Positions 1,659 through 25,182 of a DNA stretch of 50,938 bases are shown here, piece after piece. Both the position numbers and the translations under genes were made by a program. The notes beneath the pieces are model-generated. The model was not told the origin of the DNA and ran no database searches. It saw only the letters and a list, made by a program, of their open reading frames with translations. Origin of the DNA: a virus (Duplodnaviria > Heunggongvirae > Uroviricota > Caudoviricetes). The stretch lies in IMG/VR virus record IMGVR_UViG_2636415959_000002, one strand, 5' to 3'. Numbering within the stretch: the stretch's first letter is position 1; the number at the start of each line of letters is the position of its first letter.

Positions 1659-4130
1659 TTAAGAATCAGCCTGACTCGGGATCAGTTTTTGCCAGATAGC
1701 TGAAACGTATTTTGCCTGGTAACGGGCGTCATCAAGTGCATTATGGCGCTCACCTTCGAATGGAATAGCCGTTCTGGCATCGAAGTCTATGGCTTTCCCC
1801 AGCTCAACGATTGTGCGTACATCGCGATCGTTGTAGTAACGCCACGGGCAGGGGATTCCCTGCCGTTCGTATGAACGGCGCAAAATCGTGTTGTCGAAGT
1901 TGGCTCCATTTCCCCAGACATGAACAAAAAATTCACCGGAGTTTTCGTCGATAAATTCCCGCAATTGTAACAGTGCATCATCTAACGGGATTTCATCGGT
2001 CATAATGGCAGATTGCGCTTCGCGTGATTGCTTAAGCCACCATTTAATGGTGTCCCGATCAATGACTCCGCCAGCAGTTTCCAGATCGATAGTCTTACTA
2101 AATTCCGGTCCCATATCTCCGGTTTGCGGATCGAAAAATATTGCACCTATTGAGATGATCGGGGCATCAGGATTTTTTCCCATGGTTTCAAGGTCGATCA
2201 TTAGATGGTCACACGTCCTGCTGGTGGATGTGATTTCGTGATGACCGTTCACCTTAATTGAGTGATCTGCCGTCTCGCCAGTTTCATTATCGCTATTGTG
2301 ATGCTGATTGCCGCCAGTGTTCTCCTTGTGCTGATGCGCAGTGCCTTCCATTTCCTCCGGATCATTTTCCTGAACTTCAGGCTGATTCTCTCCATCGAAT
2401 ATTTCCTGGTATGTTGCGTCACCCATCACCGCACCACAATCAGGGCAGTTGCCGCCACCGCTATGACCGCAGGCGGTGCAGATCTTTTCCGGTTCCTGTT
2501 GCACTACTGGTTCAGGTTGTTTTGTTTCTGGCTCGTTTTGTTGCGTATTTGGGCTGTTTTGTTCCGCTTTCTGGTCGTTCTGTTCCGTTTCTTGCTGGTT
2601 CTGGTTCACAGAATCGCGGGTCTGGATCCCCTTAACCCATTTCGGATCATTCGGGTCGCTAATCCCTTCAACAAATTCACCACGTGATACTGCAAGCAGT
2701 TCATCGGCGTCAGGCTGGCTGATATTGGCTGCCTGCATAATTTTGTTTACTTCGTCAGCGGTAACTTTTACTGACCCTGGTTGTGCGGTCGTGTCAGATG
2801 CACCAGTATTTTGTTGTGAACCTGAGTATGTACCGTTTTTGCGGGCGAAATATTCTTCTTTCGTGATTTCAGTAGCCCCAGCAGACAGCGCCTTATCCAG
2901 ACCAGAAAGTTTGTTTGCGCGACCGTATTTTTCGCCATCCTTGTCGGTGAAGAGGAAGTAGAACGGCCCCTCACGTTCTACAGATGGTTCGACTTCCACT
3001 TTGCATTCGGTTTTTTCGTTGTCTGGAATTGCCGTTTCCACTGCATCAGTTTCTGGTACTGGCGACGAGAGAGTATCAGTTGCGCTCTGATTTGTTCCTT
3101 CATCTTCAAACACGCCCTTTGTAGTCAGGTATTCAGTAATGTATTTGTTCAGTGCCACAGGGTCTTTGTGAATGTCGATCGGACGTTCACGGACAAGGCC
3201 AAAAATAGTCTGGCGGTCGTAGCGAAGGGCATCAGGCTGTTTGCGCATTGATGCCGAGATACGCTTCCAGTCTTCGCGGTCGTTGTCGATAACTTCATTT
3301 TTTGCCCAGCGATGGATGCTGCCGTCAATGTTTCCGGCATCTACATCACCAGGCCAGAGAGCGTAGGCCAGTTCGTCATCCAGTGTTTTCCATGTCTGCT
3401 TGTATTCGCGATGAATGGCAGCAATGACCGGGCTGATTTTTCCTGTTGAATTTTCAGTGTACTGTTGATTGGCTCTGGCGCGGGCGAGATCAACAACAGA
3501 CGTGTATTTTCCGGTTTCCTTGCGTTCACCTTCGCGACGTTTTTTCCAGATGCGCATCTCTGCCTGAATTTCGGGCCATTTAGCACCAGGAATACATTTA
3601 TGCTTAACCCACCCAATGGCGTGCAACTTAAGCTCCGGATACATGGCGTTAACTTCTGGCATTTTCATCAACGCTTCAACGATATGTCCGTCGAATGTTG
3701 CCATGTCTTCCTGCAACAATTCCTGTGCGCTAATAACCATATCAACGGTGATGTTTTCACATGTGTCGAACTTAACCATGACAGCGTTCTGTACTTCAGG
3801 GGCCAGCTTGTCAAAAGTGACGTTCATCGGATCGGATTCAGTCTCAACCGGGACAAAAGAAGCAGACTCCTCATCCCAGCGGTTTTCCTGCATATATTCA
3901 GCATCCCATGAATCGAGGGCAGGGCGGGGTATGCCAGGTTTATCCTCGCAGACAATAAATTTATAAGCGCAGTCCTGAGCAGCCGGATAATGTTCCAGGA
4001 ACTGCCAGTGAAATTTTGCTCGAGCACGGCGTTCGTCGCCAGCTTCAATGGCTGTGGCTACAGCCACAGCGCCTTCTTCCCTTGTTGCCAGTTCGTCAGG
4101 AATAGCGGCGCAAATAAAGACTTTACTCAT
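1659..4130 (-). CDS. Prophage exonuclease with C-terminal DnaQ-like (DEDDh) 3'-5' exonuclease domain
   Basis: 823-aa ORF; C-terminal ~190 aa has Exo I (MIDLETMG), Exo II (HVWGNGANFD) and Exo III (HNALDDARYQ) motifs; long N-terminal region with a Cys4 ribbon (CTACGHSGGGNCPDCG) and a Gln/Glu-rich linker. Similar proteins are often labelled exodeoxyribonuclease VIII-like in prophages. Confidence 0.8.
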   Translation of the reverse strand: MSKVFICAAIPDELATREEGAVAVATAIEAGDERRARAKFHWQFLEHYPAAQDCAYKFIVCEDKPGIPRPALDSWDAEYMQENRWDEESASFVPVETESDPMNVTFDKLAPEVQNAVMVKFDTCENITVDMVISAQELLQEDMATFDGHIVEALMKMPEVNAMYPELKLHAIGWVKHKCIPGAKWPEIQAEMRIWKKRREGERKETGKYTSVVDLARARANQQYTENSTGKISPVIAAIHREYKQTWKTLDDELAYALWPGDVDAGNIDGSIHRWAKNEVIDNDREDWKRISASMRKQPDALRYDRQTIFGLVRERPIDIHKDPVALNKYITEYLTTKGVFEDEGTNQSATDTLSSPVPETDAVETAIPDNEKTECKVEVEPSVEREGPFYFLFTDKDGEKYGRANKLSGLDKALSAGATEITKEEYFARKNGTYSGSQQNTGASDTTAQPGSVKVTADEVNKIMQAANISQPDADELLAVSRGEFVEGISDPNDPKWVKGIQTRDSVNQNQQETEQNDQKAEQNSPNTQQNEPETKQPEPVVQQEPEKICTACGHSGGGNCPDCGAVMGDATYQEIFDGENQPEVQENDPEEMEGTAHQHKENTGGNQHHNSDNETGETADHSIKVNGHHEITSTSRTCDHLMIDLETMGKNPDAPIISIGAIFFDPQTGDMGPEFSKTIDLETAGGVIDRDTIKWWLKQSREAQSAIMTDEIPLDDALLQLREFIDENSGEFFVHVWGNGANFDNTILRRSYERQGIPCPWRYYNDRDVRTIVELGKAIDFDARTAIPFEGERHNALDDARYQAKYVSAIWQKLIPSQADS

Positions 4131-4223
4131 TTTGTTTTAACCTCATGACAGATTTAAGGATGAACAAATCCCTGCCATTGCTGGCATATAAGAATGAAAC
4201 CGGATATTTATTACGGAACTGTT

Positions 4224-4424
4224 TTAAAGACCTGCCGGGATTTCGATATTATCCTGGTGAATAACTTTATCGACCGGGTAACAGTTACCGGGAATTTTCT
4301 GTTCGGTTGCTGCAGTCACACACTCCTGCATTGTCCTGTGAACACTGACTGCAATATCAACTGGCTCTCCGGAAACAAGAAAAACTGTCAGAACAAGTGC
4401 AAATGCTGTATTCATTGCCAGCAT
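4224..4424 (-). CDS. Small protein with predicted N-terminal signal peptide or membrane anchor
   Basis: ORF 4224..4469; internal start MLAMNTAFALVLTVFLVSGEP gives a 66-aa protein with a hydrophobic leader and only a 13-nt overlap with the upstream ORF. Confidence 0.35.
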   Translation of the reverse strand: MLAMNTAFALVLTVFLVSGEPVDIAVSVHRTMQECVTAATEQKIPGNCYPVDKVIHQDNIEIPAGL

Positions 4425-6116: not shown

Positions 6117-6536
6117 TTAAGAGGCTTTTTGTTTTTTCTTTCGTGCTAACTCTTCGTAAATTGCATTGTACTTCTGTTTTTTCTCTTCAAGAGTTTTTAA
6201 AAGTTCATCTGTCTCACTGTCAGGGAGCTCGTCCAGAAGGTCAATGATGATTTTTTGTCTTGGATTTAACTCCTGATAGAAACGTACCTGTCCACTTTCT
6301 TCTGTATCCTCTCCCAAAAGATAGGTTGGTGTTGTTCCTATTAGTGTTGCTAATTCCCTTAATTTCTCCCGGCGAGGAATTGTTTCGCCATTAAACCATT
6401 TGCTAACCGCTTTTGGTGTTAATTTCATTCGACGGGCAATTTCTGCCTGCCTTCCATGTTGTTCATAACCAGCGTTTTCACAGGCTAGCGCAAGCCTACT
6501 GGCGAACTCTTTACGCGCTTTATCTTCATGAACCAT
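6117..6536 (-). CDS. Prophage repressor, XRE-family HTH, non-LexA-like
   Basis: 139-aa ORF with N-terminal helix-turn-helix (QAEIARRMKLTPKAVSKWFNGETIP) and no S24 peptidase domain; divergent from a Cro-like gene. Confidence 0.75.
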   Translation of the reverse strand: MVHEDKARKEFASRLALACENAGYEQHGRQAEIARRMKLTPKAVSKWFNGETIPRREKLRELATLIGTTPTYLLGEDTEESGQVRFYQELNPRQKIIIDLLDELPDSETDELLKTLEEKKQKYNAIYEELARKKKQKAS

Positions 6537-6615: not shown

Positions 6616-6870
6616 ATGAACCAGAAAACACTTGAAGATGTAATCAAAACTGTTCGCGTTGCTGTTGTGGCCGACGTTTGTGGTGTCAGCCAAAGAGCAA
6701 TCTATAAATGGATGGATAACGGAAAATTGCCTCGCACAGAATATACCGGCGAAACAAATTACGCTGAAAAAATCGCTCTTGCATCAAACGGATTATTTTC
6801 TGCCGATGCAATTTTAACTATTGGCAGGAATAAAACTACTACGAAAAAGCTGATGGGAGTTGATTCATGA
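6616..6870 (+). CDS. Cro-like HTH DNA-binding protein (YdaS-like)
   Basis: 84 aa from internal start MNQKTLEDV with GAGGG RBS; HTH segment VADVCGVSQRAIYKWMDNGKLP; divergent from the repressor. Confidence 0.7.
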   Translation: MNQKTLEDVIKTVRVAVVADVCGVSQRAIYKWMDNGKLPRTEYTGETNYAEKIALASNGLFSADAILTIGRNKTTTKKLMGVDS

Positions 6871-7292
6871 AAATCAAGCATGAACACATCCGCATGGCGA
6901 TGAATGCCTGGGCGCATCCGGACGGCGAAAAAGTACCGGCTGCGAAAATTACCAAAGCGTATTTCGAGCTGGGAATGACGTTCCCGGAACTGTATGACGA
7001 CAGCCATCCGGAAGCCCTGGCTCGCAATACTCAGAAAATTTTCCGCTGGGTGGAGAAAGACACCCCTGATGCGGTTAAAAAAATTCAGGCGTTGTTACCA
7101 GCTATCGAAAAAGCAATGCCACCTCTGCTGGTGGCCCGAATGCGCAGTCATAGCTCAGCCTATTTTCGGGAACTAGTGGAGACGCGGGAACGACTGGTGA
7201 GAGACGCTGATGATTTTGTCGCAGTGGCGATCGCTGGTTTCAACCAGATGAATCGTGGTGGCCCTGCAGGAAATATTGTGGCTGTGCATTGA
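6867..7292 (+). CDS. ydaT: YdaT-like (CII-like) regulator of Rac-type prophages
   Basis: 141-aa ORF MKIKHEHIRMAMNAWAHPDGEKVPAAKITKAYFELGMTFPELYDD..., recalled as closely matching E. coli Rac YdaT; overlaps the stop of the Cro-like gene (operon coupling). Confidence 0.65.
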   Translation: MKIKHEHIRMAMNAWAHPDGEKVPAAKITKAYFELGMTFPELYDDSHPEALARNTQKIFRWVEKDTPDAVKKIQALLPAIEKAMPPLLVARMRSHSSAYFRELVETRERLVRDADDFVAVAIAGFNQMNRGGPAGNIVAVH

Positions 7293-7363
7293 CTCGCAAT
7301 ATTCATACCGGATCACTTCCGGCAATTTATGAGTAAAAAGATTCGGTATCAAAAGAGGTGAGT

Positions 7364-8434
7364 ATGGCTAACGCCTGGCTCAGATTATGGCATGACATGC
7401 CAAATGACCCTAAGTGGCGAACAATTGCCAGGGTGTCAGGGCAGCCAATTGCAACAGTGATGGCAGTGTATATCCACCTCTTGGTGAGCGCGTCACGAAA
7501 TGTCACGCGAGGTCACATTGATGTCACGACAGAAGATTTGGCAAGTGCGCTCGACGTGACAGAAGAGGTAATTGATTCAATTTTGCAGACGATGCAGGGG
7601 CGGGTACTTGATGGTGATTTAATCACTGGATGGGAAAAACGCCAGGTGCTTAAAGAGGACAATGGCAATATTTCGCAAACCGCAAAATCTCCTGCAGAGC
7701 GCAAGAGGGCGCAGCGAGAGAGGGAAAGAAAGCGGGAACAAAATGGCGATTGTCACGGCGCGTCACGAAATGTCACGCACATGTCACGACGAGTCACGAC
7801 AGATAAAGATACAGATAAAGATACAGATCAAGAAGATCAAAACACTATGGTCCATGGCGTAAAAAACGCCACGAACCAGGCAGGGGATGTTCAGACCGTC
7901 AATCTTGGTCAGCCAGCAGGCACGACACCGGAAGCCGATTCAGCGTATGCGCTGAAAGCCGATTCGGGCGCTGTGCAGCAGGTGATGACCGCAAGGCCGG
8001 AGCAATCACACCAACTGCAGCAGCCCGAAGCCGATTCCGCCATTCAGCGGGAAGCCGATCGGGTAGTCCCGGAAAACACCGGGCAGTCTGTGGGACGAGT
8101 GGATTATCCGGATGTGTTCGAACAGGTCTGGCGGGAGTACCCGTTGCGTGCCGGAGCAAACCCGAAGAAATCCGCTTTCAGTGCCTGGAAGGCCAGATTA
8201 CGCGAGGGGGTGCCACCAGAGGCCATGCTGGATGGCGTGAGGCGTTACGCAAGATACTTGGCGGCTACCGGGAAAACGGGAACGGAATTTGTTCAGCGAG
8301 CGACGACGTTTTTTGGACCGGACCGGAATTTTGAGAACCCCTGGTTGCTCCCGGTAAGCGGCACGAACAACCAGCGTTGTGTGAATCATATTTCTGAACC
8401 GGATAACGAAATTCCGCCGGGCTTCAGGGGGTAA
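7364..8434 (+). CDS. ydaU: Replication initiation protein, YdaU/DUF1376-like
   Basis: 356 aa from ATG with AAGAGG RBS; N-terminus MANAWLRLWHDMPNDPKWRTIARVSGQPI typical of the YdaU family; iteron arrays lie inside the coding sequence. Confidence 0.65.
   Translation: MANAWLRLWHDMPNDPKWRTIARVSGQPIATVMAVYIHLLVSASRNVTRGHIDVTTEDLASALDVTEEVIDSILQTMQGRVLDGDLITGWEKRQVLKEDNGNISQTAKSPAERKRAQRERERKREQNGDCHGASRNVTHMSRRVTTDKDTDKDTDQEDQNTMVHGVKNATNQAGDVQTVNLGQPAGTTPEADSAYALKADSGAVQQVMTARPEQSHQLQQPEADSAIQREADRVVPENTGQSVGRVDYPDVFEQVWREYPLRAGANPKKSAFSAWKARLREGVPPEAMLDGVRRYARYLAATGKTGTEFVQRATTFFGPDRNFENPWLLPVSGTNNQRCVNHISEPDNEIPPGFRG
7490..7560 (+). repeat. Iteron cluster 1: GTCACG/GTCACA hexamers at about 10-bp phasing
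   Basis: gtcacg at ~7492, 7502, 7523, gtcaca at ~7512, and an inverted copy cgtgac at ~7555. Confidence 0.5.
7750..7832 (+). repeat. Iteron cluster 2 (five GTCACG at 10-11 bp spacing) followed by a duplicated 12-mer, putative replication origin
   Basis: gtcacg at ~7752, 7762, 7772, 7783, 7793; then agataaagatac x2 (~7801-7824) and an A-rich tail; the 19-mer cgtcacgaaatgtcacgc is shared with cluster 1. Confidence 0.5.
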
Positions 8435-8474
8435 GTGTTAATTTCTGGTCATGAGGTAATTTTCAGGAGGGCTT

Positions 8475-8897
8475 GTGGCAAAAGTTTTTACACAAGAAGA
8501 GCGGGAAAAAATTAAAGGGCAGGTTGTTGAACTCGTACGCCAGAGTGGGCGCGAGACGTTAAGACAACTGGAAACTAAAACTGGGGCAACAAAATATCTG
8601 ATGAACGTTCTGGCCAGAGAGCTGGTTGCCAGTGGCGATGTATACAACTCTGGTTACGGGTTATTCCCGTCTGAACAGGCGCGTAAGGACTGGCAAAATG
8701 CCCGTAAAAAGCTCTCAAGGGCAAAGCTGAAGAAACCATCTGCGGTTGATCCGGACCTTATCTGGTCATTACCTGATGGAGAAATACGTCGTTACGACAG
8801 GCGTCATAATATGATTTGTACTGAGTGTCGTAAAAGCGAAGTTATGCAGCGCATATTGTCGTTTTATCAGGGGGATGTTCGGTATTTATTGAAGTGA
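8475..8897 (+). CDS. Hypothetical protein (GTG start)
   Basis: 140-aa ORF with AGGAGG shortly upstream of GTG; basic; CxxC near the C-terminus; no family recognised. Confidence 0.45.
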   Translation: MAKVFTQEEREKIKGQVVELVRQSGRETLRQLETKTGATKYLMNVLARELVASGDVYNSGYGLFPSEQARKDWQNARKKLSRAKLKKPSAVDPDLIWSLPDGEIRRYDRRHNMICTECRKSEVMQRILSFYQGDVRYLLK

Positions 8898-9159
8898 CGA
8901 GATTAAAGTGCATTAGTTCAGATGCAAATTGACATTTTGTGGCACAGGGTAGAGCTAGCGTGGTTGTCCGCTTTGTGCCAACAGCGGACATTATGGAAGG
9001 TCAGAGTTAAAGATTAAAATGGGATGCTGTGTGTTTTCTCCAGGTTTTGCTCTATACCTTTCGGGATACTCCACCGACAGAATACGAAAATCAACATTAT
9101 CAACGGCTCGAAGTGTCTAGATTATCCATGGCAATTCATGGGAAATCCCATCCAACGGC

Positions 9160-10551
9160 TTATGCTTCATGTTGCTTTTTGAGATCGCTTCTAGCATAGC
9201 TCCACTCAATAATGTTGTCGGGTCGTTGCTGATCGAAAAGGATACGGGATTCAATACCATTACCTAAAAAGCTGGTATTCCCATCTACGTAAGAAGCTAT
9301 CCCTTGTGAACCAACACGAAGAATATTTTCTAATGGCTGCTTTGTTCTTGCTGCATCGCTAAGGAGATATAAACCCGGGTACGTTTTGTTAGCACGGTGA
9401 AAAAAAAGTTCATTGTCAAAACACATGACGATGATTATTTGTCCCGACATGAGATCGGAGAGCATTTCAGTTGGCAGATGCAAACTCATAAATGGTCGAG
9501 ACAAAGGGTCAAAGAATGAATCATTTATATTCACAACAGGGCTTTTTATACCGAGACTATCCATCCATCCATTGAAGGCAACAAAGCCCATTTCAGAATC
9601 ACGGTACATACCTAAGAACAAACATTCATCAATAGTATCAATTGCCCAATTTTTTCCTCCGCGAATAATCTCCCACATTTTAACTAAGCGGTGGGTATAA
9701 AATTCAGACGGATGATCTATCTCATTGATTTTAACTTTAGACTGATGAAAGTTGTCAAAGCCCTCGCCAGTATTAATCGCCTCCAGAACATTCATGCCAC
9801 GAATGATTTGCCTTTTTATGCGATTAAATTGCTTAACATCATTATCAGGCATATTGTTAATGAAGTTTTCTTCAAAGTGCGGACATTCTGAGATAACAGA
9901 AAATTCAGCAGCTTCATAAAGCTCATTATTCTTTTCACCTGTTTTAACTTCCACGAGCTGGAAGCCATCCAGTAGATTAAAGGTGACTAAATCTCCCACA
10001 TGAACAAATGTGCTCATGTCAGAGACAATCGCTACGGAGTGTTTGTCCTGGTTGATAAGATCGGCTGCGACCATAGAATCAATTATGTTATCTTCTGATA
10101 GATTGTCATTGCTTGCATTAATAGGTAAACGCCGCAAACTAGAGTGTTCTTCATCAAGAATGCTCCAAATTATTGAGTCAATACAACGGCGAAGAATAAG
10201 AATTTCAAATTTTTTTAAACTTATTTCATCAATACACTTTTCTTTATTTTCTTTATCCTTGTTTCGATGGTGCTCTTTTTTTTCAGTTTCCAATCTTTTT
10301 ATATCTCTCAGCCGAATAATAATCTCAAAAGATATGATTTTTTGTGAGTCTTTCCAATTTTTGAGACAGGTTTCATACTCTGCAAGAAAATCCTCATCAT
10401 TGGAAGGTAGTTCTTGAATTGGATTCCCTCCCCTTATCATTTTGGCAAGTGCATGCATTAAAGATACATAATGAGGCGATAAAATTGTCCAAAACTTCCT
10501 AAACGGTTTGTACTTTTCAAGAAAAGTTGACTCATCAGTATAATTCATCAT
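9160..10551 (-). CDS. Uncharacterised 463-aa protein, downstream partner of the AbiH-like gene; possible PD-(D/E)xK nuclease-like core
   Basis: ORF 9160..10557; likely ATG at 10551 (MMNYTDEST) with GAGG upstream; AT-rich codon usage; segment FVHVGDLVTFNLLDGFQLVEVKTGEKN fits D-x13-E-x-K; no Walker motif or other signature recognised. Confidence 0.6.
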   Translation of the reverse strand: MMNYTDESTFLEKYKPFRKFWTILSPHYVSLMHALAKMIRGGNPIQELPSNDEDFLAEYETCLKNWKDSQKIISFEIIIRLRDIKRLETEKKEHHRNKDKENKEKCIDEISLKKFEILILRRCIDSIIWSILDEEHSSLRRLPINASNDNLSEDNIIDSMVAADLINQDKHSVAIVSDMSTFVHVGDLVTFNLLDGFQLVEVKTGEKNNELYEAAEFSVISECPHFEENFINNMPDNDVKQFNRIKRQIIRGMNVLEAINTGEGFDNFHQSKVKINEIDHPSEFYTHRLVKMWEIIRGGKNWAIDTIDECLFLGMYRDSEMGFVAFNGWMDSLGIKSPVVNINDSFFDPLSRPFMSLHLPTEMLSDLMSGQIIIVMCFDNELFFHRANKTYPGLYLLSDAARTKQPLENILRVGSQGIASYVDGNTSFLGNGIESRILFDQQRPDNIIEWSYARSDLKKQHEA

Positions 10552-10640
10552 AACCAAACCTCATTCCTCTTATCTATTTTCCTCAAGGTATAAAATACCA
10601 GCCTTTTTTACATAATTATAGTTATAATATGAAGTCTCAT

Positions 10641-11510
10641 TCAGATATCTTCATACTGTACGTAAGAAATATTTGAGCCTCTGATACCATAATCTTCTAA
10701 ACTGCCTGATTTTTTCTCACCTCTATATAAAGCAACTATCCATCGAGCATTTTCTTGGATGCTTTTATTTATTTCAGTAAAGTATTCACCGTCAACTTCG
10801 GCGAGCGAGTGGCCTAAAACGATGACCTCGTCCACATTTTTAAGCGATGAGAAAAAAACGTTTTCTTCTTTAATTATGTCTTCGCTGGGCTTGAATGTAT
10901 TACCGAAGTATTCGTTTATTCTGTCGTATGCCTCTGCTATTCTTGTATCTTGATCCGGTCCTATATATGGATTTAGTGACTTTTCCACCCTAAAACTATG
11001 ACCAAGTATGAGATCGTCATCGTAACTACAATTGCCGTGAATATGTATGATTTGCTCGTCTGGAACGGCATAGATCTGCTGCAAGGTATTTGTATAATTA
11101 AATGAAAAATAGATGCTTTCTCTTGGTATGGGCGGGATGTATTGCTTAGGATTGTAAGCATCGGCTATGTTAATCCCTTTAACCCAATCAGCGAATTGCT
11201 CCTTCAAACGAGCTGACAGCATTTGTGTGATTTTATTTACTTCATATTGGTAATCGTGATGATAAGCATCGCTCCAATCATCGGTATTGTATGAAGCCAA
11301 AAATATCTCACTGTTTTGAAGGATAAGCTCATAATCAATTTCACCTAAAGCATTTTCTAACTCATTCCACTCGTCCCCAGCAGGAATGTATTCTTCTATC
11401 GCGTCATATAGATCTTGGTCATTTTTTTCTACATACGACTTAAAGTGCTTGTATCCTGTTGGTAAGCCATGACGCATGTCAAATCCATTTCCTATTATGT
11501 AAAGCCTCAT
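10641..11510 (-). CDS. AbiH-family (abortive infection) protein
   Basis: 289 aa from internal ATG (MRLYIIGNGFDMRHGLPTGYKHF) with AAGGGA RBS; the IIGNGFD-x-HGL-x-T-Y motif is the N-terminal signature I recall for the AbiH family; AT-rich. Confidence 0.7.
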   Translation of the reverse strand: MRLYIIGNGFDMRHGLPTGYKHFKSYVEKNDQDLYDAIEEYIPAGDEWNELENALGEIDYELILQNSEIFLASYNTDDWSDAYHHDYQYEVNKITQMLSARLKEQFADWVKGINIADAYNPKQYIPPIPRESIYFSFNYTNTLQQIYAVPDEQIIHIHGNCSYDDDLILGHSFRVEKSLNPYIGPDQDTRIAEAYDRINEYFGNTFKPSEDIIKEENVFFSSLKNVDEVIVLGHSLAEVDGEYFTEINKSIQENARWIVALYRGEKKSGSLEDYGIRGSNISYVQYEDI

Positions 11511-11968
11511 TGTTTTTCCCTTAGTCGAATTGTATAAAAATACTAACATGGCCTGCTCCACGTTGACTACTATCCCCTCCTTTGAGTAATGCCTTCATCA
11601 GATGTAACAACATTTGCGAGCTTCCACAGTTCGCTCAAAGCGGACTAGAAGGTTAGCTTGCGTCGGACTTGGCGTATTTAAAGAAGTGCTGGTGGAGACT
11701 GGTTGTTGTGTTCCATTTCTACAGAACAAAATCACAGAAACTATACCCAATAGTTATATTGAATCAATGATGAGACAGCCTCATATTTATCAGGACTGGT
11801 GTACGTCCAATACAGGAGGTTGTCGTGCTGGTTCTCAAATGTGCGCTAGCTATTGCGGCTGTAATGGCAATTTATTGTCTTGCTGTTGTTCTTACGGATC
11901 GCCTTTCTGATTGATTTTATATTGGCGAGGTGACGTGAGTTAAGTAGAATTGCTGCGGGTGCTTGAGG

Positions 11969-21501: not shown

Positions 21502-25182
<3,681 letters not shown>

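Follow-up and report, generated by a model that had tools for sequence, protein, structure and literature searches.

The stretch of DNA analysed here, in the following referred to as the window (50,938 nucleotides; IMG/VR record IMGVR_UViG_2636415959_000002), is 100% identical to E. coli chromosomes, e.g. NZ_CP065970.1, and represents a lambdoid E. coli prophage that looks complete and is inserted at ydfJ, where K-12 carries Qin. The gene predicted to encode the replication initiator of this prophage contains two arrays of GTCACG hexamers, the second of which is followed by an A-rich tract. We consider the segment 7488-7878 to be the vegetative replication origin of the prophage, located inside the gene of its own initiator, and assign a probability of roughly 80% to this reading. 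It is based on the DNA-level constraint on the hexamers, their phasing, the concerted change of their core, their linkage to the N-terminal domain (N-domain) of the initiator and the adjacent stability minimum. The gene and its features are located as follows:

7364-8434, plus strand: putative replication initiator gene (356 amino acids (aa); open reading frame and coding sequence of the Prokaryotic Genome Annotation Pipeline, PGAP), which holds the whole element
7364-7750, plus strand: coding region of the predicted N-terminal winged-helix domain (residues 1-129), the presumed origin-binding module
7488-7530, plus strand: array 1, four phased copies (GTCACG, GTCACG, GTCACA, GTCACG) with a spacing of 10/10/11 bp
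7552-7561, minus strand: single inverted copy (CGTGAC at 7555; TGTCACG on the minus strand), 32 bp after array 1
7748-7800, plus strand: array 2, five phased GTCACG copies with a spacing of 10/10/11/10 bp
7799-7845, plus strand: A-rich, purine-strand tract, a candidate DNA-unwinding element (DUE), consisting of a tandem 12-mer and subsequent GATC sites
7848-7878, no strand assigned: imperfect palindrome GGTCCATGGCG-A5-CGCCACGAACC with 13 pairs and a 5-nt loop, bordering the A-rich tract
8360-8431, plus strand: C-terminal 24 residues (...EPDNEIPPGFRG), resembling the C-terminus of the primosomal protein DnaT

A reading of the letters and open reading frames alone (the sequence-only reading) had described phased GTCACG clusters inside the initiator gene as a putative prophage origin. 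These clusters are real and comprise nine direct GTCAC(G/A) copies 10-11 bp apart in addition to the inverted copy at 7555. The GTCACG copies of array 1 start at 7492, 7502 and 7523, the phase gap being filled by GTCACA at 7512, and those of array 2 start at 7752, 7762, 7772, 7783 and 7793. The two arrays were also said to share a 19-mer; the shared block was recovered, but it is an exact 21-mer, GCGCGTCACGAAATGTCACGC (7488-7508 and 7758-7778), and the string quoted for it has 18 nt. Likewise, the duplicated 12-mer and the A-rich stretch reported to follow the second cluster were found: array 2 runs directly into two tandem copies of ACAGATAAAGAT (7799-7822), and the A-rich tract continues with GATC at 7826 and 7835. 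The arrays lie about 230 bp apart, with about 190 bp of N-domain coding sequence between the inverted copy and array 2.

Eight of the 19 forward GTCACG hexamers in the 50.9-kb window are located inside the initiator gene, while the 11 forward and 7 reverse copies outside the gene correspond to chance, at which about 12.4 copies would be expected on each strand. No 6-mer other than GTCACG reaches at least four copies inside 60 bp anywhere in the window. No GTCACG cluster was detected elsewhere in the window, and the operator region between the repressor and cro genes does not contain the hexamer.

The A-rich tract is characterised by an AT skew of +0.57 and by a GC content of 30% at 7800-7839. 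Within the gene, the 40-mer starting at 7803 is the least stable, with a nearest-neighbour free energy (dG) of -43.4 vs a gene mean of -57.3 (standard deviation 3.8). Consensus scans of 7200-8600 for DnaA boxes and for IHF and Fis sites revealed none of them in the candidate origin segment (7400-7900). Scans of the region for promoters and terminators remained at background level, with four promoter-like matches found vs 3.8 expected in shuffled sequences.

The repeated hexamers are not explained by the encoded protein. When the amino acid sequence was kept fixed and the codons were redrawn 20,000 times from the prophage's own usage, GTCAC occurred 1.8 times on average (maximum 7) vs nine times in the gene, and GTCACG 0.74 times (maximum 5) vs eight times; neither observed count was reached in any of the redraws. 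The same result was obtained by permutation of the gene's own codons (0/20,000). The nine direct copies occupy the codon phases 2, 0, 1, 0 in array 1 and 1, 2, 0, 2, 0 in array 2 and are translated as A-S-R, V-T, G-H or C-H. Since all three codon phases are used, the copies do not constitute an amino acid repeat. A true peptide repeat in the same gene, in contrast, shows the single phase that is to be expected of it: AAGCCGAT occurs four times, whereas the GTCACG copies are spread over three phases.

The constraint on the cores was also evident at synonymous sites in 20 GTCAC-type loci without insertions or deletions (indels) in array 1. Four-fold degenerate third positions were conserved to 0.98 inside the cores (n = 7) vs 0.48 elsewhere in the N-domain (n = 28; Mann-Whitney p = 2.7e-5), and the valine codon of the inverted copy was GTG in all 17 of 17 sequences. 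This synonymous-site conservation directly indicates that selection acts on the cores as DNA sequence. Thus, the hexamer cores are under purifying selection at the DNA level, independent of the protein sequence. Array 1 encodes a low-confidence loop of the N-domain model (residues 43-55) with low predicted local distance difference test (pLDDT) scores, and array 2 encodes part of a disordered linker (residues 129-146). Loop and linker can tolerate both the sequence imposed by the DNA and 7-aa indels caused by changes in copy number.

The repeats are present in homologous initiator genes; their absence there would, according to the sequence-only reading, have refuted the origin. In the DNA of eight homologues array 1 and array 2 comprise 6+6 or 5+5 copies in E. 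coli alleles, 4+5 in Salmonella, 4+3 in Serratia, 6+3 in Yersinia and 4(+1)+3 in the metagenomic contig L005. With the exception of L003 and L004, these close homologues keep GTCAC(G) at a distance of 10-11 bp in three codon phases, with differing spacers; L003 and L004, homologues at about 47% protein identity, possess GTAACG instead in both arrays. Cores are invariant and spacers have diverged across taxa whose N-domains are approximately 50-75% identical to the query. The homologous proteins, when aligned, show indels exactly at the two arrays, e.g. as a 7-aa insert (TCHGVSR) equal to 21 bp, or two repeat units, and the copy number of array 2 varies from 3 to 6, giving rise to 21-bp (7-aa) indels. 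A scan of viral contigs yielded 80 identical E. coli copies and no added diversity.

For a wider comparison one genome per species was scanned with the N-domain alignment, which resulted in 58 loci from Gamma-, Beta- and Alphaproteobacteria and a few metagenome-assembled genomes (MAGs) with other labels; 52 of them were analysed. Two arrays, each with at least two phased copies according to a simple k-mer method, were identified in 39 of the 52 loci with a spacing of 10-11 bp and at the same positions of the gene (about +117 to +150 and +340 to +440 from the W5 codon). Three types of core were distinguished: GTCACG (approximately 24-30 loci), GTAACG (about 5) and (C)GAACGC (approximately 14-17). 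The core is always identical in both arrays of one gene and thus changes in a concerted manner between lineages. Most GTCAC-type relatives have the inverted copy at the same position too. In 38 of the 39 two-array loci the 40-mer of lowest stability in the gene begins 3-31 bp downstream of the final array-2 copy, and in 38 of 39 the tract following array 2 is a purine repeat of the GATAAA/GATACA type, regardless of the type of core. Taken together, the synonymous-site, cross-relative, concerted-core and N-domain-linkage tests support the type of origin that had been proposed from the sequence, namely phased repeats inside the initiator gene followed by an AT-rich segment.

Several relatives deviate from this pattern. 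A 302-aa E. coli allele (P0019) carries an in-frame deletion (window positions approximately 7770-7930) of most of array 2, the A-rich tract and the palindrome and may represent a natural origin deletion in a decaying prophage. In L054 (about 3300-4188, Serratia MAG) and L065 (about 3300-4302, Pantoea) the initiator gene is 100-150 aa longer; the additional sequence directly follows the N-domain and contains a GIY-YIG-like motif (YVYYV...VGISxNPWAR), and no clear array 2 was observed. The insert may be a nuclease domain or a homing element at the position of the origin. The loci L037, L039, L051, L055 and L057 (Ventosimonas/Entomomonas and betaproteobacterial MAGs) retain the N-domain and the GATAAA-type tract, with no obvious phased arrays by the k-mer method; they may have sites of a different type or more degenerate ones.

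In L003-L007 the palindrome next to the A-rich tract is retained, both of its arms having changed. It likewise occurs in the Shigella phage 75/02 Stx (L150, 2412-2440), whose N-domain is unrelated, and is therefore assigned to the C-terminal module. L010 contains a different palindrome, CGCGCATGCGCG, at the same place. On the minus strand the palindrome of the window resembles a weak terminator.

Initiators with other combinations of domains indicate which module the arrays follow. L010 combines the same N-domain with a DnaT-like C-terminal domain (C-domain), and its arrays are kept. The initiator of phage 75/02 Stx (P0032-type) possesses the same C-domain and an unrelated N-domain, and its gene lacks GTCACG and contains other repeats and a CAGGAA-type purine tract instead. 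The position downstream of the initiator gene is occupied by a DnaC/IstB-like gene in L003-L005 and 75/02 Stx and by a lambda-P-like gene in L006, L007 and L010, while the window, L008/L009 and phage Tritos lack such a gene. A YdaT-like homologue was detected within 3 kb in 12 of 57 loci using a hidden Markov model (HMM) built from nine YdaT-like neighbours, and both GTCAC- and GTAAC-type arrays occur beside such genes. DUF977 varies, as do the loader genes. Hence the arrays travel with the N-terminal winged-helix module and not with the C-domain, the loader gene or the YdaT-like gene. The N-domain is the only consistently linked candidate reader, and we infer from this linkage that it binds the cores. 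YdaT/CII-like proteins, DUF977 and the repressor or Cro were considered as binders and rejected, given that their genes co-occur inconsistently with the arrays and that the operator region is devoid of GTCACG. As a separate observation, a DnaC-like gene accompanies the same C-domain in relatives, and a lambda-P-like gene accompanies a longer acidic tail.

The 356-aa product is annotated as hypothetical protein by PGAP and as phage replisome organizer in NCBI protein records, and some depositors refer to the gene as DNA replication protein O. It is matched by PHROG 3729 (replication initiation protein; E 5e-258), and its 90%-identity cluster at NCBI has 5,786 member sequences. The same gene was found at 97-99% DNA identity in seven deposited phage records including Tritos, Evi and vB_EcoS-689R5; Tritos, deposited as a complete phage genome, carries the same replication module. 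A Pfam scan of the whole initiator and of its N-domain revealed no family above the threshold. The N-domain did not match the lambda O family in Pfam or PHROG, nor did the initiator match RepA_N in Pfam even at E values of up to 10. Two family models were matched below the threshold, both aligned over the entire model, namely PF09681 (phage_rep_org_N; 16.6 bits, cut-off 23.3, E 0.008) and TIGR01714 (19.2 bits, curated cut-off 49.8, E 0.001), and the protein may at best be regarded as a distant relative of the phage replisome organizers of the SPP1 G38P type.

The AlphaFold2 (AF2) model of residues 1-129 has a mean pLDDT of 73, with values of 85-93 in helices, and comprises helices at 16-25 and 29-45, the low-confidence loop at 46-55, helices at 56-63 and 67-77 and a subsequent beta hairpin. 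The N-domain models as a winged helix of the DnaD type, closest to the N-terminal domain (NTD) of DnaD and to pSK41 RepA. Outside the N-domain the full-length model is poor (pLDDT 50), and residues 129-246 form a long linker that is predicted to be disordered (pLDDT below 50). The C-terminal 24 residues match the DnaT model NF002770 of NCBIfam (E 2.5e-4; model positions 156-179 of 179), and a profile search of PDB sequences yielded a marginal match to the DnaT tail only. The same tail also ends the Rac protein YdaU and may be a shared motif contacting primosome proteins of the host. The peptide repeat mentioned above (EADS, encoded by AAGCCGAT at 7931, 7955, 8027 and 8051 within 7928-8059, all in one codon phase) is not common to all alleles in this form; in the frequent 324-aa alleles (P0006 type) the part between the AAGCCGAT copies is missing, which suggests that they arose by deletion through recombination between these repeats.

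If the segment acts as an origin, monomers of the N-domain would each occupy one GTCACG core, so that one face of the DNA carries a monomer per helical turn, with four sites and one inverted site in array 1 and five sites in array 2. Oligomers of the initiator may bridge both arrays into one nucleoprotein complex, which on negatively supercoiled DNA would melt the adjacent GATAAA-repeat tract (7799-7845). The C-domain would then bring in the DnaB helicase. In relatives the helicase would be loaded through the DnaC-like or lambda-P-like loader of the phage, and in this prophage, which has no loader gene, through host factors that are perhaps contacted by the DnaT-like tail.

A design distinct from lambda-like wrapping is also conceivable, but as a whole it appears doubtful. 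Here the DnaD-type winged-helix initiator would polymerise on the 6-bp cores as a filament with one protomer per turn, and its oligomers would loop the two in-gene arrays together. The complex would engage one strand of the (GATAAA/GATACA)n repeat in a sequence-specific manner, as DnaA and DnaD do at chromosomal origins, and the helicase would be recruited without a phage loader via the DnaT-mimicking tail. As array 1 encodes a loop of the DNA-binding domain, site and reader would be physically coupled, and a change of the iteron would alter the protein too. If true, this coupling could drive the switching of specificity between GTCACG, GTAACG and GAACGC and hence the formation of replicon incompatibility groups.

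Some results weigh against the interpretation of the segment as an origin. The literature search provided no experimental evidence of binding, unwinding or replication for it. About one quarter of the relatives lack clear arrays according to the simple k-mer method, and array 1 may be a regulatory site rather than part of the origin proper. A mutual-information search, which is confounded by phylogeny and by the overlap of sites and codons, revealed no residue outside the iteron-encoded loop that clearly tracks the type of core. The family HMM matches of the N-domain fall below the threshold, its likeness to the DnaD fold relies on a model of medium confidence (pLDDT 73), and a Foldseek search of this model against the PDB gave nothing significant. 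Finally, the large terminase subunit gene (21902-24002) is annotated as frameshifted in the identical chromosome record, and this copy of the prophage may therefore not be a viable phage or make particles.

Three other explanations of the arrays were weighed. The first, which we regard as unlikely, assumes that they are binding sites of the initiator serving mainly control, i.e. autorepression, a roadblock to rightward transcription through rep, titration or handcuffing, and that the origin is located elsewhere or consists of only array 2 and the A-rich tract, array 1 being purely regulatory. Iterons of plasmids commonly serve initiation and control alike. A control role would be in line with the presence of two separate arrays, just one of which abuts the A-rich tract, and with the position of array 1 270 bp upstream inside the coding region of the DNA-binding domain. 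Furthermore, SPP1 G38P has a second binding site, oriR, apart from the origin at which initiation takes place (PMC5737612). However, there is no other GTCACG cluster in the 50.9-kb window, and 38 of 39 relatives have their least stable DNA after array 2, a hallmark of origins at which replication starts. Moreover, control role and origin function are compatible.

According to the second explanation, the arrays are sites for a CII-like/YdaT activator or another phage regulator driving an internal or antisense promoter. A YdaT/CII-like gene (6867-7292) is located immediately upstream, and one weak promoter-like match on the minus strand (7776-7749; 9/12 positions) overlaps array 2. Lambda CII binds TTGC-N6-TTGC direct repeats inside coding regions, and direct repeats at a distance of one turn resemble CII sites. 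Yet the YdaT-like gene lies within 3 kb in 12 of 57 loci only and accompanies both GTCAC- and GTAAC-type arrays, promoter-like matches are no commoner than in shuffled sequences (4 vs 3.8), 4-6 copies per array far exceed the need of an activator site, and the arrays track the N-domain of the initiator. We therefore consider an activator site highly improbable.

Hardly any weight is given to the third explanation, i.e. repeats without function as DNA (coding repeats prone to slippage, or duplications of recent date) or a signal for packaging or recombination that has nothing to do with replication: the copy number does vary by 21-bp units among alleles and the pac site of P1 also consists of two hexamer clusters, but invariant cores with diverged spacers, three codon phases (unlike AAGCCGAT, the four-fold peptide repeat in one phase) and the conservation of synonymous sites argue against it. 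A packaging signal was rejected given that the arrays follow the domain of the replication protein across phages with unrelated late regions.

The prophage contains integrase/xis, exonuclease VIII, dicB, an immunity region, a Q-type antiterminator, lysis genes, lambda-like head and tail genes and pinQ. The genes surrounding the initiator gene in the early right operon region are the following:

6117-6536, minus strand: repressor with helix-turn-helix (HTH) motif
6616-6870: Cro-like HTH protein
6867-7292: YdaT/CII-like gene, immediately upstream of the initiator gene
8475-8897: DUF977/Ren-like gene, directly after the initiator gene

No helicase-loader gene of the DnaC/IstB-like or lambda-P-like type was identified after the initiator gene (8434-9160) or elsewhere in the annotated prophage (1-45000), and phage Tritos shows the same layout with no loader gene after the initiator. 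The replication module of the prophage looks intact despite the annotation of the terminase as frameshifted. Immediately downstream of this module an abortive-infection gene of the AbiH family and an adjacent 465-aa open reading frame without assigned function were detected on the minus strand (9160-11549); both are located in AT-rich DNA and look like a defence moron.

The initiator is widespread and yet annotated as hypothetical protein by PGAP. The candidate origin provides a defined fragment for building replicons, for reading induction and copy-number data of prophages and for predicting incompatibility or cross-activation of co-resident prophages. The natural variants of the core (GTCACG, GTAACG, GAACGC) on a conserved scaffold lend themselves to mapping the recognition of DNA by a DnaD-type winged helix, and the missing loader gene raises the question how the phage initiator recruits DnaB.

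An origin consisting of iterons and a DUE inside the initiator gene is a textbook principle, and the family of the initiator has already been named. Since this principle of design is classical, the current understanding is not overturned. A description of the origin of this family was not found in the literature searched; the concrete origin, the 6-bp direct iterons at one-turn distance in two in-gene arrays and the lineage-specific switching of the core seem to be undescribed there.

In lambda the O protein binds iterons in the middle of gene O beside an AT-rich tract that is unwound, the iterons being imperfect inverted repeats of about 19 bp (PMC7466680). Variants of ori-lambda with six iterons occur in Stx phages, in which the extra iterons lengthen the O protein (PMC7466680). 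Similar to lambda, whose origin lies in the part of gene O linking the DNA-binding N-domain to the C-domain that contacts the loader, array 2 and the A-rich tract (residues 129-160) of the presumed origin encode a linker between N- and C-domain, the AT-rich tract (7799-7845) directly flanks the iterons, and the gene follows cro and cII-like genes in the early right operon, with a lambda-P-like gene following in some relatives. The prophage differs from lambda in that it lacks a P gene, that its initiator shows no detectable sequence relation to O and that the iterons are 6-bp direct cores every 10-11 bp. These form two arrays, the first of which lies within the sequence coding for the DNA-binding domain. 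The description as a classical lambdoid ori arrangement holds for the in-gene repeats and their AT-rich flank, but not for 19-bp iterons of dyad symmetry.

The oriL of SPP1 is embedded in gene 38, where G38P binds repeated AB boxes next to an AT-rich DUE, and initiation requires supercoiling (PMC5737612). G38P is devoid of an AAA+ domain; it passes the helicase on by way of a loader (PMC5737612). The repeated boxes and the candidate DUE of the window are likewise embedded in the gene of an organizer, which bears the same NCBI family name. The repeat sequences and the architecture differ, however, and oriR of SPP1 is far off in the genome, whereas both arrays of the window lie in the gene. In the staphylococcal RepA_N plasmid pSK41 the DnaD-like NTD of Rep binds four Rep boxes in the centre of rep, which encodes a dispensable linker (PMC5703833). 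The protein of the window appears to share the N-terminal winged helix with the fold of the DnaD NTD, judged by its model. It differs in its occurrence in phages of Proteobacteria instead of plasmids of Firmicutes and in lacking a RepA_N match; furthermore, the C-terminal domain of pSK41 Rep recruits DnaG, while the C-domain of the window protein is different and ends in the DnaT-like tail.

With respect to the Rac prophage, the gene of the window had been called YdaU-like. This name could not be maintained, as no DUF1376 match was obtained in scans of Pfam, PHROG and NCBIfam and only the acidic linker and the C-terminal IPPGFRG tail are common to the K-12 protein. The ydaU gene occupies the same position in the operon, following genes of the racR/ydaS/ydaT type, and encodes an acidic linker with nearly the same DNA motif, AATAAAGATACAGATAAAGATC, and the same C-terminal tail (...PD..IPPGFRG). 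The N-domain of YdaU, in contrast, is DUF1376, and BLASTP aligns just the last 19 residues and the low-complexity linker; Rac also possesses the DnaC-like ydaV. The proposed comparison with the oriJ region points to a similar layout in ydaU, without the GTCACG arrays and the N-domain. A fine map of oriJ was not found in the searchable literature. In ydaU of K-12 Rac (L149, 3472-3635) four repeats of the (C)AGATGTTCAA type are located directly upstream of AATAAAGATACAGATAAAGATCTAAAAACAGATC, which is nearly identical to the A-rich motif of the window. Hence Rac appears to follow the layout of the window with other sites and another protein as reader, and the repeats of ydaU together with the A-rich motif represent a candidate core of oriJ.

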